From the sequence record MN296515: 50,309 nucleotides of DNA. One strand, given 5' to 3'. This document shows, in pieces, positions 33,116 through 47,642 of this stretch (positions are counted from its first letter, which is position 1; each line of letters starts with the position of its first letter). The position numbers and the translations under genes are program-made. The notes under the pieces were generated by a model that saw only the letters and a list, made by a program, of their open reading frames with translations, searched no databases and was not told the origin of the DNA. The stretch is from Shigella phage Sfin-3.

Positions 33116-35134
33116 GTGACAATTAACATCAAAAAGCAAATCGCATTACTTGGCGATGACTATATAAAACGCACTCAAGAACGATTCACTGTTGGTGAGG
33201 TCGTTCCGTATCCGTACCAGGTTGTTGCTTATGCTGAGATCGCAAAACGCCTATCAAATTATGAGCATCCATTCTTTGTTAAAGCGTCAGTATCGGCGGG
33301 TAAGACCATCATTTTTGCTATGGTTGCAAAGCAGTGTCAAAAAATGGGCTTGAAAATGCTTGTGCTGGCACGCCAGGGTGAGATTGTCGATCAGGATAGT
33401 GAAGAGATCGACAATTTCGGGGTGACTAACTCTATATTCTCAGCGTCACTTGGAATCAAGTCTTGCTACTTCCCGATCGTGGTAGGCTCTGAGGGTACTG
33501 TTGCAAATGGTTTAAATAATGAGCTAGCTGATTTTGTCCCTCACGTAATCGGGATAGATGAATGTCACCAGGTGGATTGGGAAGACCTTGCACAAGCCAT
33601 AGATGGCAAGGAAACGATGGAACAGATGCGGGAAGAGAAGGGAAAAATCATTATGAATGGGGAGGTTCCTCTGATTGGTAATGATGGGAAGCCTCTACTT
33701 GGAACTAAGCGAAGCCAATACACGATCGTAATCATGGAAATGATGCGCCGCTGCAAAGAAACTCACGGTCACGACCTCAGAATATTTGGTATGACTGGAT
33801 CTGAATTTCGTGGCGTAGTTCCTATTCTTGTTGAGAATCCAAAGGCGTTAGGCTTCTGGCGTGAGCGCGTTACTGATATAGACACCAACTACCTTATTGA
33901 GTTTGGCTCAGTTGTTCCTACTATATTCGGCTCGACGGACGGAGTTCACTACGATCTTGATAAATTTAAGGCATCAAGCGAGGATGGGGTACAGGACTTT
34001 ACAGAGAAAGATATGAAGGCAATGGAAGATGAGATCCTTCATGATAAATCTCTTACTCAGCGAATCATGCAAATGGTTGCTAAAAAGGCTGAAGAGCGTA
34101 ACGCAGTCCTGATTACATGCGCCGGGGTGCGTCACTGCAAAGAGGCGGCAGCGGCACTACCGCATGGAAGCACATATGCAATTATTACTGGCGACACAGA
34201 CACTAAAACGCGCAAGAAGATTCTTGATGATGTGAGGGCAGGGAAAATTAAATACACCTTTCAGGTCATGGCGCTAACTACTGGCGTTAACGTTCCAAAC
34301 TGGGATTTCAGTGTAATACTTCGCAAGATAGGATCTCTCACCTTGCTGATTCAGCTTTTGGGTAGGGGTATGCGACTTCTTAAATCATGGCAGGTTGCTG
34401 AAGGGATGGTTAAGCAAGACCATCTTGTATGGGATTTCGCAGGCACGATGGATGAGTTGGGGCAGCTTTATTTCGATCCTATACTTGAGCAGGCTCAGTT
34501 CCAGAAGCGATTTGAGAACGGAAAAGACCCGAAAAAGTGTCCGAAATGTGGTTGCGTAAATAGCTTCTACGCTCGCCGATGCGTTAACGTTATCGACGGT
34601 GAACGCTGTGATCATTTCTGGACTTCTCAGATTTGCGAGGACCAGGTTGATGAACGTACCGGGAAAATTCTTGTTAAAGGGTGCGGTGCCGAGAATGACG
34701 TTGTTGCCCGAGTCTGTCGCTGTTGCGATGTTTCTCTTGTTGATCCTAACCTTAAGTTATCCGGTAAGGCGTACACTAAGAATGACTGGTACGAGGTCAA
34801 GAATTTTGAAGTTACGTTAACCAAAAACCAAAAGGGTGTGATATACAAATACACACTTATTAACGACGATGGTGATGAGTTCAAGGCGTATGAAAAATTC
34901 TTCCCTGAGTCAGACTCTAAGATTTGCGGTACGCTATGGAAAACGAAAGGAGTATTGCCTCACGTATCAGATCCTAAAATGCGTCGCTACTTTATCGGAA
35001 TGAAGAACGCTATCAAGATCGTGCAATACGCTCATCATATAGCGCATCCGGTACGCGTTACTCATAGACGCAACCAGAAGAAAGAAGATATTATTTTACG
35101 CAAAGATTTTGGTATGGAGGATATCCCGGAATGA
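33116..35134 (+). CDS. SF2 DNA helicase (DExH box) with C-terminal zinc fingers
   Basis: 672 aa; Q-motif PYPYQ, Walker A SAGKT, DECH box; C-terminal CPKCGC...C...C clusters; GTG start after module 33035-33077. Confidence 0.8.
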   Translation: MTINIKKQIALLGDDYIKRTQERFTVGEVVPYPYQVVAYAEIAKRLSNYEHPFFVKASVSAGKTIIFAMVAKQCQKMGLKMLVLARQGEIVDQDSEEIDNFGVTNSIFSASLGIKSCYFPIVVGSEGTVANGLNNELADFVPHVIGIDECHQVDWEDLAQAIDGKETMEQMREEKGKIIMNGEVPLIGNDGKPLLGTKRSQYTIVIMEMMRRCKETHGHDLRIFGMTGSEFRGVVPILVENPKALGFWRERVTDIDTNYLIEFGSVVPTIFGSTDGVHYDLDKFKASSEDGVQDFTEKDMKAMEDEILHDKSLTQRIMQMVAKKAEERNAVLITCAGVRHCKEAAAALPHGSTYAIITGDTDTKTRKKILDDVRAGKIKYTFQVMALTTGVNVPNWDFSVILRKIGSLTLLIQLLGRGMRLLKSWQVAEGMVKQDHLVWDFAGTMDELGQLYFDPILEQAQFQKRFENGKDPKKCPKCGCVNSFYARRCVNVIDGERCDHFWTSQICEDQVDERTGKILVKGCGAENDVVARVCRCCDVSLVDPNLKLSGKAYTKNDWYEVKNFEVTLTKNQKGVIYKYTLINDDGDEFKAYEKFFPESDSKICGTLWKTKGVLPHVSDPKMRRYFIGMKNAIKIVQYAHHIAHPVRVTHRRNQKKEDIILRKDFGMEDIPE

Positions 35135-35547
35135 TTACAGATAAAGGCGATTACTTAGAGTTTTACGAGCGAGATCCTAGCGACACGCGAAAGGAGGACG
35201 CTCATCAAGTAGACTGCGTGTCCTGGTTGAAATACAATTTTCCTCAGCTTCTATTTTGGCACACAGTTAACGAAGGTGAAAAAACAATCACTTCGGCACT
35301 TAGGGATGAGCAGGCTGGATTACTTAAAGGCGTATCAGACTTTGTTATTCTGATTGGTATAAACTCACGTTACCCGTTCGCAGCTATCGAACTCAAGCGG
35401 GTTAATAAGTCCGGCAAAGGAAAGGCATCACCAGTCAGCGATAAGCAAAGGGAGTTTCTCAAAAAGGTTCGGGATCGCGGTGGATTCTCTGCCGTTGCAT
35501 ACGGATTTGAGCAATTCAAGCTGGCAATATACGATTTAACGAAATAG
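35131..35547 (+). CDS. VRR-NUC domain nuclease
   Basis: 138 aa; GVSDFVI...ELKRVNKSGKGKASPVSDKQREF pattern of VRR-NUC (PD-(D/E)XK) domains. Confidence 0.7.
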   Translation: MITDKGDYLEFYERDPSDTRKEDAHQVDCVSWLKYNFPQLLFWHTVNEGEKTITSALRDEQAGLLKGVSDFVILIGINSRYPFAAIELKRVNKSGKGKASPVSDKQREFLKKVRDRGGFSAVAYGFEQFKLAIYDLTK

Positions 35548-43990: not shown

Positions 43991-44191
43991 TCAGGATAGC
44001 TTTCGCGCTTCATCAATGATAACAGGTTCGAGGCGCTCAAGTCGAACGCGGAACGTGTTCATAAATCCCTCGTTGTTCTTCAATAATTCGAAGGCATCCG
44101 TAGCTTCAATTGCGCTATTTCCCATGTAGGCAACTACTCTCTTTTGCGTCTTGCGTGAGATCGCAACCACGCGGTAGATATTATCACTCAT
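43991..44191 (-). CDS. hypothetical protein (66 aa)
   Basis: ATG 44191 with AAGGGGG RBS; overlaps stop of upstream gene. Confidence 0.5.
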   Translation of the reverse strand: MSDNIYRVVAISRKTQKRVVAYMGNSAIEATDAFELLKNNEGFMNTFRVRLERLEPVIIDEARKLS

Positions 44192-44555
44192 ACAATGCCC
44201 CCTTAACACGATCCGCAATGCAGGAGTTTACAGTGATTGAGTAGTTAGCCACGCCCCATAATGCAATATTGCCAAGCTCGGTACGCATTGATGGATTGTT
44301 AAGCTGGATTATTGTCTCTCCAGTATCATTATCAATAAAGCGAGACACGCCTAAATGGTCCACCACGCGGGTTACTCGGTTCACGCACTCCATTGCATCA
44401 CTTACACCGTAATAAGCGCTTAGAGCGGCTCTCACTGCCTTCTCTTGCTTGTTGTAAATCTTGCGAGCAATGTTCTCGATCGCTACGTTCTCTTTCTCGT
44501 CAGTCTGGATTGCTGTGCTTGCTGAGAAGTCAAGGTCTACGAATTGTTTAAACAT
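44184..44555 (-). CDS. hypothetical protein (123 aa)
   Basis: ATG 44555 with AGAGGG RBS (track start 44579 is TTG overlapping upstream gene). Confidence 0.5.
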   Translation of the reverse strand: MFKQFVDLDFSASTAIQTDEKENVAIENIARKIYNKQEKAVRAALSAYYGVSDAMECVNRVTRVVDHLGVSRFIDNDTGETIIQLNNPSMRTELGNIALWGVANYSITVNSCIADRVKGALYE

Positions 44556-44559
44556 GTAA

Positions 44560-44790
44560 TCACCCTCTAAAACTATCAATTGTATCGTTGATGTATTTCA
44601 CTTGCGCCTCTACGTCAGACGTGGCTATATACTGGAATGTATCGTAATCTTCCCAAAGGTCGACAAGCTCAACCTTTGTATGATGCTCTTTTAATCCACC
44701 CATGTGACCGTAATGTGTGCGGTAGACGATGAATCCCTCATCATTGGCGCGCTGGATTGCTTTCTTCAATCCGGGGTGTTTAATTGCCAT
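44560..44790 (-). CDS. hypothetical protein (76 aa)
   Basis: ATG 44790 with AACCAATCAGGAG RBS; track GTG start 44823 overlaps the -10 at 44822-44827. Confidence 0.55.
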   Translation of the reverse strand: MAIKHPGLKKAIQRANDEGFIVYRTHYGHMGGLKEHHTKVELVDLWEDYDTFQYIATSDVEAQVKYINDTIDSFRG

Positions 44791-44821
44791 CTTATCAATC
44801 TCCTGATTGGTTGGTGTGTTC

Positions 44822-44864
44822 ACTATACCCCGATTCCCTTCGAGGCGTTTAGCAAAAAGTGCTA
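44822..44864 (-). promoter_or_regulatory. composite promoter module, minus strand (TAGCA-ctttt-TGCTA, 22 nt, -10 TATAGT)
   Basis: Palindrome 44850-44864; -10 44822-44827; ATG 44790. Confidence 0.55.
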
Positions 44865-44865
44865 T

Positions 44866-45051
44866 TTAGAATTTTACATCTTCAACAAGCTCAACCATTT
44901 TGTAACCCAAGCGATAAGAGTCGCCGAACAACAACAGACCCATAAATTCATCGTTGGTTATTGACTCCTTGCCAACAGTTTTAAGCTCTCCGTTGTGAAT
45001 CACGGTATCGCCTATCTTGATCTCTGATTTATGAACTAATTTTGTTTTCAT
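44866..45051 (-). CDS. hypothetical protein (61 aa)
   Basis: Track ORF. Confidence 0.5.
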   Translation of the reverse strand: MKTKLVHKSEIKIGDTVIHNGELKTVGKESITNDEFMGLLLFGDSYRLGYKMVELVEDVKF

Positions 45052-45066
45052 TTTCTGACCCGTTAA

Positions 45067-45252
45067 TTAGAAGAAAGATACGTAGTTTGCAATACCTTTA
45101 GCGTCGTCGTTAGGCATTGCTTTGATAGCCAGGTCATAACCAGCCTCGACCTTCTGCTTTGCTGACTCTTCGTTGTATCCCCAAATAACCAGGATCTTAA
45201 CTACGTTTTCTTTGCTCAGGACTTTAAGGTCTTTAGTGATGCGAAGTGCCAT
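45067..45252 (-). CDS. hypothetical protein (61 aa)
   Basis: Track ORF; GAGGAAAAAC RBS; module 45287-45329 upstream. Confidence 0.5.
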   Translation of the reverse strand: MALRITKDLKVLSKENVVKILVIWGYNEESAKQKVEAGYDLAIKAMPNDDAKGIANYVSFF

Positions 45253-45286
45253 TTTTGTTTTTCCTCAATCTCGTTTCGATGAGGTA

Positions 45287-45329
45287 ATTATGCCAAATCA
45301 CACCGATCGAGTTTTAACAAAAAGTGCTA
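45287..45329 (-). promoter_or_regulatory. composite promoter module, minus strand (TAGCA-ctttt-TGTTA, 22 nt, -10 CATAAT)
   Basis: Palindrome 45315-45329; -10 45287-45292; ATG 45252. Confidence 0.5.
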
Positions 45330-46018
45330 TCCGCGATAGCTTTAAAAAATCCCCTGGGCGACAGGGATCGTATCAACTTAGTTTTGGCAGATTTGCCGCC
45401 CAGCTTGTTTTGCTGTGCAGAGTACCCGTCAGGCAGGTTTACAGGTTTTCTCTCGGGCATGACAAAATCGCCAGAGGTCCAAAGACAAGTTTTCTTCGGA
45501 TAAGCATCGCGCGGCGCAATATACATCGGGAACCAGGGATGTGAGTCATTCTCAGGAAGATAGCCGCCATACTCCCAGGGATTGAAGGAGTGATTTGGTT
45601 TTCTCCACGCAGACGACAGGACGCTCACCGGATTCTCAATGATGTAAGTCACGCCCAGGCTATCTCCAATGTTCGCAGCAATCCGGGCGGTGGCGACAGC
45701 TTTCTCCTGGAACAACGGATCACGTTCACGCTTGCTGGCAAAGTGGCGAGCACCACTAACAGCCAGGTCAGTGCACGGCGGGAAGGCTATAATGAAATCC
45801 GGCTTGCCATACACGCCAGCTATAGCATCACGCTCAAACGCTGCGTCAATGAACACGTTCACATACTCAATGTTCGGATGCTCCACTCGGGCATTGTACT
45901 TTGCATAATCCCCGTGATCGGCTCCGTCAAAGTTGAAGCACATCACCTTGTGACCTTGCTTAGCCAGTTCATGACCTGCAAGGCCGGAACCGTCGAATAG
46001 CGACCAAATCAACTTCAT
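45314..46018 (-). CDS. small DNA (cytosine-5)-methyltransferase-like protein
   Basis: 234 aa; motif I SLFDGSG, motif IV FPPC (catalytic Cys), motif VI ENP in canonical order; shorter than typical C5-MTases. Confidence 0.55.
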   Translation of the reverse strand: MKLIWSLFDGSGLAGHELAKQGHKVMCFNFDGADHGDYAKYNARVEHPNIEYVNVFIDAAFERDAIAGVYGKPDFIIAFPPCTDLAVSGARHFASKRERDPLFQEKAVATARIAANIGDSLGVTYIIENPVSVLSSAWRKPNHSFNPWEYGGYLPENDSHPWFPMYIAPRDAYPKKTCLWTSGDFVMPERKPVNLPDGYSAQQNKLGGKSAKTKLIRSLSPRGFFKAIADSTFC

Positions 46019-46158
46019 TTTGCGATCTCCTTTTTGTAGTGATTCAGCTTGTCGATGATTGACTTCGACTTGTTGGCTAGCGCCATGTCAGAGAACAGAG
46101 CCACGCGATAGATGTGTTCGTAACGATTAATGGCCGCGTTGATGTTTGCAATATTCAT
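46015..46158 (-). CDS. hypothetical small protein (47 aa)
   Basis: ATG 46158 with CAACCAATCAGAGGA RBS; track GTG start 46197 would overlap the -10; stop overlaps next ATG. Confidence 0.45.
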   Translation of the reverse strand: MNIANINAAINRYEHIYRVALFSDMALANKSKSIIDKLNHYKKEIAK

Positions 46159-46188
46159 GTCGATTCCTCTGATTGGTTGATGTGATGA

Positions 46189-46233
46189 ATCATACACTGC
46201 CAGCCTGACCAGGTCGTTAGCAAAAAATGCTAT
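46189..46233 (-). promoter_or_regulatory. composite promoter module, minus strand (perfect TAGCA-ttttt-TGCTA, 24 nt, -10 TATGAT)
   Basis: Palindrome 46219-46233; -10 46189-46194; ATG 46158. Confidence 0.5.
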
Positions 46234-46433
46234 TCCAATAGTTGCTCATTATTCCACCAGTAATGGAATATCTGGAATAATTGCGATCCCGATTGATCTC
46301 GAATGATGAAATGTGATTGTTGCATGATGTGCAACTGTTGATGTGATTGTTGCTTGGAATGCAATGATTGTGAGAGGGAGGATTTAGTGTTACCCGGTTC
46401 GCCTGGTAGTCATCTCCATTTTTAGCAAAACGT

Positions 46434-46448
46434 GCTATCGATTACACT
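46434..46448 (-). promoter_or_regulatory. palindrome copy (TAGCA-cgttt-TGCTA) without evident -10
   Basis: Minus-strand orientation in intergenic region B; no TATAAT-like hexamer at 22-24 nt. Confidence 0.35.
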
Positions 46449-46754
46449 TTAACTTGTCACGACTGTAATATTTGTCTAGAATCGCACTTGTGACAAAATT
46501 ACGCACTGTGACGCATAACAATAGACATGTAGATATATGTATATATATAATATATATAGTGTTTTTTTATTTATATATATAGATAATCATATTGTAATGG
46601 TTGTGTATAGCCGTCTTACATTGTCTAGCGTACTGTTGGCATATTTCTATCTGCATGTTTATATATACAGTACTTTTTTGAGAGCCATATATTTCTATAT
46701 GGACCCTAGACAGCTAGACAAATGTTACACAGCTTAAAATTGGCTCGCAGGCAT

Positions 46755-46783
46755 TGACAGCCCTACATTGCGCCGTCACAATG
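46755..46783 (+). promoter_or_regulatory. weak sigma70-like promoter candidate (TTGACA-17-CACAAT)
   Basis: -35 46755-46760 perfect, -10 46778-46783 poor; in AT-rich region B upstream of gene 46842. Confidence 0.3.
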
Positions 46784-46841
46784 GCAATTGTTGACATGTT
46801 ATGACAACATTTACACATCAATAGACAAATAAGGATGAATT

Positions 46842-47357
46842 ATGAGCAATACCAATCAGGAATTAAAAATCACCGATATGATTCGACTAACCTGCGATGC
46901 AATGTACCGCGACAAAGGCATGACCGAGTTCTCTTTCGTGGCTGATGATATGGCCATCGAGGCCGCGCGATTCTACTTCCGTGGCCAGGAGGTAAGCGAT
47001 GCCGATCTTGAATCTGCCGCTGCCGGATGGGTGGACCAGAACCAGGGGGAGGTAGAGAAGAGATTCAAGTCCGCTTTCATTACTCCGATCATTACCCGGC
47101 ACTTTTGCAAGTACGGCAAGGTGGCAAAGGTGAAGGTAGGCCGGAATGACGCGGCAATCACAATGATAACCGTTATCGTTACAGACGAAGAGGTTCCAGT
47201 GAAGAAACGCCGTAGCCGGAAAAAAGTTAGCCTGGCCGACTGCCTGGATTCGTTTGATGTTGATGTTAGCAAGCTATCCGATAGCGAGTTAATGGTTCGT
47301 GATGTGAATGAGATCGTGCGCCAGATGAAAGCGCATATTGAAAAGTGTGGACTGTAA
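46842..47357 (+). CDS. hypothetical protein (171 aa)
   Basis: Track ORF; first gene after AT-rich region B; AAGGATGAA RBS. Confidence 0.6.
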   Translation: MSNTNQELKITDMIRLTCDAMYRDKGMTEFSFVADDMAIEAARFYFRGQEVSDADLESAAAGWVDQNQGEVEKRFKSAFITPIITRHFCKYGKVAKVKVGRNDAAITMITVIVTDEEVPVKKRRSRKKVSLADCLDSFDVDVSKLSDSELMVRDVNEIVRQMKAHIEKCGL

Positions 47358-47372
47358 CGCTGATAGGTGAAA

Positions 47373-47415
47373 TAGCACTTTTTGTTAAAGCTCGGTCGAG
47401 CGGATCGGGTATTAT
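47373..47415 (+). promoter_or_regulatory. composite promoter module (TAGCA-ctttt-TGTTA, 22 nt, -10 TATTAT)
   Basis: Palindrome 47373-47387; -10 47410-47415; ATG 47448. Confidence 0.55.
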
Positions 47416-47447
47416 CTTTTCATCGACACGATACAGAGGAAACGAAG

Positions 47448-47642
47448 ATGGAAACGCAAATTGACGTAGTGGTTGTTCAGCGGGACTCAACTCATGAAAA
47501 GGGTCTTTTCAAGAAAGGAACCGAAATCACGATCGACCTTGAGGATATGGTTGCGTATCACTCGGGCCTTACCTGGAACGTGGTGCGCGTAGGGAGCGAC
47601 TACAAACTCAAAGGCTTTAACACTTACTTTGCGGAGGCTTAA
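47448..47642 (+). CDS. hypothetical protein (64 aa)
   Basis: ATG 47448 with CAGAGGAAACGAAG RBS after module 47373-47415. Confidence 0.5.
   Translation: METQIDVVVVQRDSTHEKGLFKKGTEITIDLEDMVAYHSGLTWNVVRVGSDYKLKGFNTYFAEA

Follow-up and report, generated by a model that had tools for sequence, protein, structure and literature searches.

A very probable orphan C5-cytosine DNA methyltransferase of the compact PHROG 757 family in Shigella phage Sfin-3

The window analyzed here, a stretch of 50,309 nucleotides, is the complete genome of Shigella phage Sfin-3 (sequence record MN296515). The gene of interest is an ORF of its minus strand, 45314-46018, taken from the ORF list and confirmed by direct reading, that starts with an ATG at 46018-46016 and encodes 234 residues (Table 1). 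By exact-sequence look-up, the product corresponds to QGF19766.1 / YP_009902301.1 of Sfin-3, and this protein is named hypothetical in GenBank, "DNA methyltransferase" in RefSeq, and "C-5 cytosine-specific DNA methylase" in UniProt. The family profile phrog_757, "DNA methyltransferase," matches this protein over its full length (residues 1-231, E 2.5e-84). When 5.8 billion proteins were searched from word seeds, 6,547 homologues reached E<=1e-3 (lowest E 3.6e-153), and several motif residues are invariant in an alignment of 30 sequences; on both grounds, a chance ORF is excluded. Two plus-strand ORFs of the same region, 45590-46000 and 45173-45544, are regarded as spurious because the opposite strand carries a coding frame that is strongly conserved.

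Table 1. Positions in the window of the methyltransferase gene, its motifs, and the neighboring features discussed in the text.
Feature	Coordinates	Strand	Remarks
Very probable C5-cytosine DNA methyltransferase CDS, 234 aa	45314..46018	-	PHROG 757; exact Sfin-3 protein match; C5-methyltransferase fold (model)
Motif I, FDGSG, residues 8-12	45983..45997	-	Putative SAM-binding loop after strand 1
Motif IV, FPPCTDLAVSG, residues 79-89	45752..45784	-	Codon of the putative catalytic Cys82, TGC, 45773-45775
Motif VI, ENP, residues 128-130 (GAG AAT CCG)	45629..45637	-	Glu128, predicted N3-protonating residue
Lys175-Lys176	45491..45496	-	Equivalents of predicted substrate-binding residues in K42 Dcm
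"GYSxQ" loop, residues 182-210, ~29 aa	45389..45475	-	Only segment at the topological position of the target-recognition domain (TRD)
Shine-Dalgarno AAGGAG	46027..46032	-	8 nt 5' of the methyltransferase ATG, within the upstream ORF
Small upstream ORF	46015..46158	-	47 aa from ATG 46158; 60 aa from GTG 46197
Phage Dam-type N6-adenine DNA methyltransferase, 237 aa	35615..36328	+	PF05869, PHROG 111

The methyltransferase is the second gene of a leftward operon that departs from a divergent intergenic region (about 46.2-46.8 kb). The initial annotation had proposed translational coupling to the 47-aa ORF that precedes it, and the junction agrees with this proposal, the methyltransferase ATG overlapping the TGA of the upstream ORF (46017-46015) in an ATGA. 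The same 4-nt overlap is also annotated in phages SA12KD and Sfin-1 (CDS35/36). The upstream ORF has no Pfam or PHROG match, and tblastn detects it in no more than 8 close relatives, where the match begins at residue 12 or 16. Moreover, KarlJaspers has a different gene at this place, separated from the methyltransferase by 9 nt, and in LeonhardEuler no gene is annotated upstream of the methyltransferase. Therefore, the small ORF is not a conserved partner, and its candidacy as an obligatory partner or recognition subunit was rejected. Other Drexlerviridae carry unrelated small genes at this position.

Promoter-like hexamers at 46.45-46.78 kb are no commoner than in shuffled sequence, so it is from its position only that the gene would probably be expressed early. 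Two terminator-like hairpins with T-runs after them can be drawn within the final codons of the methyltransferase (45326-45367, minus strand). An intrinsic terminator within the 3' end of the gene was considered and discarded, the hairpins folding no better than shuffles (z -0.83). Directly downstream, the 61-aa ORF 45067-45252 (minus strand) corresponds to a conserved phage protein (DUF7421, E 4e-41; phrog_7717).

The window also contains a second methyltransferase gene, which had been assigned to the Dam family of N6-adenine enzymes from its sequence. The profile searches lead to the same assignment, with 233.6 bits for PF05869 against a cut-off of 28.1 (E 1.4e-69) and an E of 4.6e-85 for PHROG 111, and the translated sequence contains an NPPY motif. 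A 138-aa ORF, 35131-35547 (plus strand), lies just upstream of this Dam gene. The gene table of the Sfin-1 paper lists the Dam-adjacent ORF as a VRR-NUC domain protein (pfam08774), an entry that places a nuclease-like gene and the adenine methyltransferase side by side.

The C5-methyltransferase-like gene is already known, being annotated, an ordinary component of T1-like phages, a member of a very large family, and one with a characterized orthologue. The DNA of positions 44000-47500 is 85-96% identical to that of about 70 T1-like phages (Tunavirus, Drexlerviridae). By tblastn, the methyltransferase is present in 1,526 of 50,697 phage records, mostly phages of Escherichia, Klebsiella, Salmonella, and Shigella, and besides Drexlerviridae the carriers include siphoviruses of 45 kb and myoviruses of 135-165 kb. 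When 1.84 billion 50%-identity representatives were searched exhaustively with a profile, 1,925 matched, 857 of them at E<=1e-10. In the BASEL phage LeonhardEuler, the orthologue is annotated as "Dcm-like C5 cytosine methyltransferase" and occupies an equivalent place in the genome, on the minus strand and adjoining a divergent intergenic region, where it leads a series of small genes extending as far as a helicase.

The protein had been described as unusually small. This is correct if it is compared with textbook enzymes such as the E. coli Dcm of 472 aa, but not within its own family, where the retrieved sequences have a median length of 234 aa and nearly all of the best 120 of the 6,547 homologues measure 225-260 aa. 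Its 234 residues are small for a textbook C5 methyltransferase and typical for PHROG 757. A few distant members of the family are fusions (P0260, 563 aa; P0256, 414 aa; P0259, 401 aa), and one of 50 scanned members, presumably P0260, has a D12-class N6-adenine methyltransferase domain (PF02086, E 2.5e-48). The same fold also occurs in uncultured phages (BFVD A0A6J5SE15 and A0A6J5NPY6), there within helicase-containing proteins of 1,100-1,400 aa.

With the Pfam model of C5 methyltransferases, the Sfin-3 protein scores below the gathering cut-off (PF00145, 12.1 bits against 22, E 0.13), and only 2 of 50 diverse members of the family reach E<0.01 with this model. A search of the protein in NCBIfam gave no match, nor did PDB sequences match either the protein (phmmer) or a 30-sequence profile (hmmsearch). 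Because the PF00145 sequence model stays below its cut-off, membership of the C5-methyltransferase superfamily (PF00145 / COG0270) rests on the fold and the motifs. An AlphaFold2 model built from the 30-sequence alignment A1 (mean pLDDT 88.4, pTM 0.87) has the class I SAM-dependent methyltransferase fold and is closest to solved C5 methyltransferases. All 50 matches listed in a Foldseek comparison of this model with the PDB are catalytic domains of DNMT3A or DNMT3B (E from 1.5e-7, probability 1.0), and the structure comparison scores are 13.6 for DNMT3B, 11.9 for 3g7u, and 11.4 for HhaI. This predicted structure is decisive for the identity as a C5 methyltransferase.

The motifs point in the same direction. 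C5-methyltransferase motifs I, IV, and VI had been recognized in canonical order in the 234-aa protein, and they are found there as FDGSG (8-12), PPC (80-82), and ENP (128-130). In the model, the glycine loop, which has the FxGxG form of motif I, is preceded by a strand at residues 3-7. Motif IV is present with P81-C82, and its third residue is Thr where the canonical PCQ has Gln; motif VI is present with E128-N129-P130, where Pro replaces the Val of ENV. DNMT3A has PCN-D and not the bacterial PCQ, and the PCTD of the phage protein, which is closer to the PCN of DNMT3 than to PCQ, fits DNMT3 as the closest structure. The residues invariant in alignment A1 are G10, S11, G12, P80, C82, T83, E128, N129, P130, and K175, and K176 is at least 90% conserved. 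In a broader set of 50 members with 29-55% identity to the query, N129 and P130 remain invariant and P80, C82, E128, and K175 are conserved in at least 90%. The family signature is PPCTD together with (I/L/V)ENP, PPCTD and IENP being the commonest forms among the representatives. Neither the QxRxR of motif VIII nor the GN of motif X is recognizable in the protein sequence, and candidates for the late motifs VIII, IX, and X are the conserved R139, R170/D171, R217, and R222-G223.

It had also been pointed out that such a protein leaves little room for a target-recognition domain, and the AlphaFold2 model bears this out. The last core strand spans residues 177-181 and the C-terminal helices residues 211-217 and 222-230, leaving between them the ~29 residues 182-210, which are mostly loop and where the confidence of the model is lowest (pLDDT 65-68 for residues 201-220). 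Rather than a domain, this segment of the model may represent a minimal element for recognition. Across the family, the loop exists in two discrete versions, GYSxQ(H/Y)xK, the version of Sfin-3, and (D/N)xNPGWxK, the version of K42/KarlJaspers, the only enzyme tested. With strict patterns, 173 anchored homologues divide into 110 of the first version, 13 of the second, and 50 others, many of which are NPGW-like; the locus compared with that of Sfin-3 is L005:10091-10798 (minus strand). The version of the loop is independent of the overall identity, since a homologue with 67% identity (P0010) has the NPGW form and one with 63% (P0005) the GYS form. Because the loop does not follow overall identity, its distribution among these sequences suggests module exchange and possibly different targets.

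Experimental data on the family come from phage K42. Wang et al. (bioRxiv 10.1101/2023.08.16.553469; Cell Rep 2024;43:114857) obtained four mutants of the Drexlerviridae phage K42 that escape the retron Ec86, and all four carry changes in a 711-bp gene named dcm. When expressed, this gene was toxic to retron-carrying cells only, and LC-MS detected high 5mC on the msDNA with the wild-type K42 Dcm, the product matching a 5mC standard. On the other hand, with the C82A/E128A/K175A/K176A mutant enzyme, there was no high msDNA 5mC and the effect was lost. In the same work, a dcm gene was present in 34 of 35 Ec86-sensitive phages, and K42 was described as 95% identical to the BASEL phage KarlJaspers (Bas06). 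Later papers take the methylation of msDNA by the phage Dcm, and the activation of retron Eco1 by this enzyme, as established.

A comparison of the Sfin-3 protein with the product of the KarlJaspers gene bas06_0055 (711 bp) shows 55% identity over 229 residues (E 2e-87). Both proteins have nearly the same length (234 and 236 aa), with C82, E128, K175, and K176 at identical positions; the genes occupy the same genomic position, and both genomes also have a Dam gene. They differ in genus, Sfin-3 being a Tunavirus and KarlJaspers/K42 a Hanrivervirus, and in the upstream neighbor described above. The recognition loop is not the same either, being GYSAQQNK in Sfin-3 and DKDNPGWAK in KarlJaspers. 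Altogether, the fold, the motifs, and the orthology to the K42/KarlJaspers Dcm support the core reading of the initial annotation, a C5-cytosine methyltransferase.

The catalytic domains of mammalian DNMT3A and DNMT3B share 12-18% identity with the phage protein, and they are domains of ~280 aa within large multidomain proteins that form DNMT3L-assisted tetramers and act on CpG. With respect to M.HhaI, M.HaeIII, and the enzymes of PF00145 / COG0270, the Sfin-3 protein is ~100 residues shorter and has PCT where those enzymes have PCQ and ENP where they have ENV; unlike the bacterial type II C5 methyltransferases, it has no restriction partner, and its motifs VIII and X are not recognizable. As for E. 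coli K-12 Dcm (EcoKDcm), twice as long, only the order of motifs I-IV-VI, seen by hhalign, and the name used in phage annotations are common to both, and the recognition domain of Dcm has no counterpart in the Sfin-3 enzyme. The similarity to this enzyme is not significant, with a best BLASTP E of 9 and an hhalign probability of 1.7% that covers motifs I-VI only, and on these values a derivation from the host Dcm was rejected. Since there is no detectable similarity, the name "Dcm-like" is uninformative regarding specificity.

Based on these results, the gene very probably encodes a stand-alone (orphan) SAM-dependent DNA C5-cytosine methyltransferase of the compact PHROG 757 type, the "Dcm-like" enzyme of Drexlerviridae. 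For the Sfin-3 enzyme itself, we infer the activity, the target, the timing, and the anti-restriction role. By analogy with solved C5 methyltransferases, SAM would be bound at the FDGSG loop and the target cytosine would be flipped out of the DNA. Cys82 of the PPCTD loop would then attack C6, with Glu128 of ENP protonating N3, and the methyl group would be transferred to C5. The contacts with DNA would involve Lys175/Lys176 and the loop of residues 182-210, in place of the usual recognition domain of 80-150 aa. Early expression would lead to the methylation of replicating phage DNA, host DNA, and retron msDNA. What the phage would probably gain is protection from 5mC-sensitive restriction enzymes. 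Such an anti-restriction benefit is plausible; for the BASEL phages, it was reported that the restriction systems under test act strongly on most Drexlerviridae and that there is no simple link between methyltransferase content and restriction resistance. The cost, demonstrated in the orthologue, would be abortive infection, set off when retron Ec86/Eco1 senses the methylation.

The sole live alternative concerns the specificity of this enzyme and not its identity. In Wang et al. (bioRxiv 10.1101/2023.08.16.553469), the CCWGG target was taken by analogy with the host Dcm, and its sole support comes from msDNA mutants. An active C5 DNA methyltransferase that recognizes something other than CCWGG, with a shorter or more degenerate motif, and in which the target of the GYSxQ version may differ from that of the DNPGW version, is a possibility to be taken seriously, although it is not the favored one. 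The absence of detectable homology to E. coli Dcm argues for it, as do the two discrete loop versions, unlinked to overall identity, in a segment of so few residues. In addition, the phage enzyme does what the host Dcm does not: the same preprint reports low msDNA 5mC in MG1655 without the phage enzyme, and this strain is dcm+, with the dcm gene present. The low methylation of msDNA in a dcm+ strain implies that the phage enzyme differs from the host Dcm either in its target site or in its access to msDNA. Against a non-CCWGG target stands the finding that each of three CCTGG mutations in the msDNA stem (3/3) abolished the defense against K42 (bioRxiv 10.1101/2023.08.16.553469).

The composition of the phage DNA bears on the same question. 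The window contains 94 CCWGG sites for 98 expected, an observed/expected ratio of 0.96, and this lack of avoidance, which speaks against a different target, is compatible with CCWGG being protected. As a means of inferring the target, site avoidance was abandoned as uninformative, given this ratio of 0.96 in a single genome. The under-represented tetranucleotides of the whole window, with expectations from a maximal-order Markov model, are CTAG (observed/expected 0.42), GGCC (0.56), and GTAC (0.70), from one genome and thus too little to interpret; GATC has a ratio of 0.80, and neither GATC nor CCWGG is strongly avoided.

Regarding how degenerate the motif could be, cleavage by MluI (ACGCGT) is blocked by 5mC at CpG. 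The DNA of Sfin-1, a close relative with a 705-bp homologue (COG0270), is fully cut by MluI and BglII (Sfin-1 paper). Because MluI cuts Sfin-1 DNA, CpG-wide methylation is unlikely, and the complete cutting likewise speaks against near-random cytosine methylation, which is also unlikely. In the literature, no directly measured 5mC motif was found for Drexlerviridae, Tunavirus, or Webervirus. A broader and more doubtful proposal is that PHROG 757 comprises the smallest natural active DNA C5 methyltransferases (~230 aa with a ~29-residue loop), in which the two loops encode different, non-CCWGG targets. If true, the published CCWGG assignment would not be applicable to Sfin-3, and the family would represent a compact scaffold with swappable specificity. 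The target sequence, and the way in which so small an enzyme recognizes DNA, make up a modest question.

The remaining alternatives deny that the protein is an active DNA C5 methyltransferase. A methyltransferase-like protein without catalytic activity, binding DNA or SAM to serve as a decoy or regulator, is very unlikely. The score below the Pfam threshold, the lack of recognizable motifs VIII and X, and the tiny recognition domain would agree with a dead enzyme; however, thousands of homologues show no or almost no variation at Cys82, Glu128, Asn129, and the glycine loop, and the effect of the orthologue requires the catalytic residues (bioRxiv 10.1101/2023.08.16.553469). A DNMT2-like RNA (tRNA) m5C methyltransferase, or an enzyme acting mainly on single-stranded nucleic acid, is highly improbable, given that DNA enzymes score higher in the structure comparison, that the methylated part of the msDNA is the double-stranded DNA stem (bioRxiv 10.1101/2023.08.16.553469), and that in one family member a DNA N6-adenine methyltransferase is part of the same protein. 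Finally, the transfer of some group that is not methyl, as in 8yf3 (carboxymethyl from carboxy-SAM would be one case), or a first step of cytosine hypermodification, is extremely unlikely in view of the match between the K42 orthologue product and the 5mC standard in LC-MS (bioRxiv 10.1101/2023.08.16.553469), the normal cutting of Sfin-1 DNA by both restriction enzymes, and the absence of cmoA-like or other modification genes among the neighboring ORFs that were searched, all of them encoding small uncharacterized proteins.

The phenotype on record for this family is one that harms the phage, the activation of retron Eco1/Ec86, which by orthology would extend to Sfin-3. Sfin-3 is a therapeutic-candidate phage, and by the same analogy, its enzyme would predict sensitivity to hosts that carry retron Eco1/Ec86. 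Moreover, with both methyltransferases, the DNA of Sfin-3 is expected to carry 6mA and 5mC, which would affect its sequencing, cloning, and restriction analysis.
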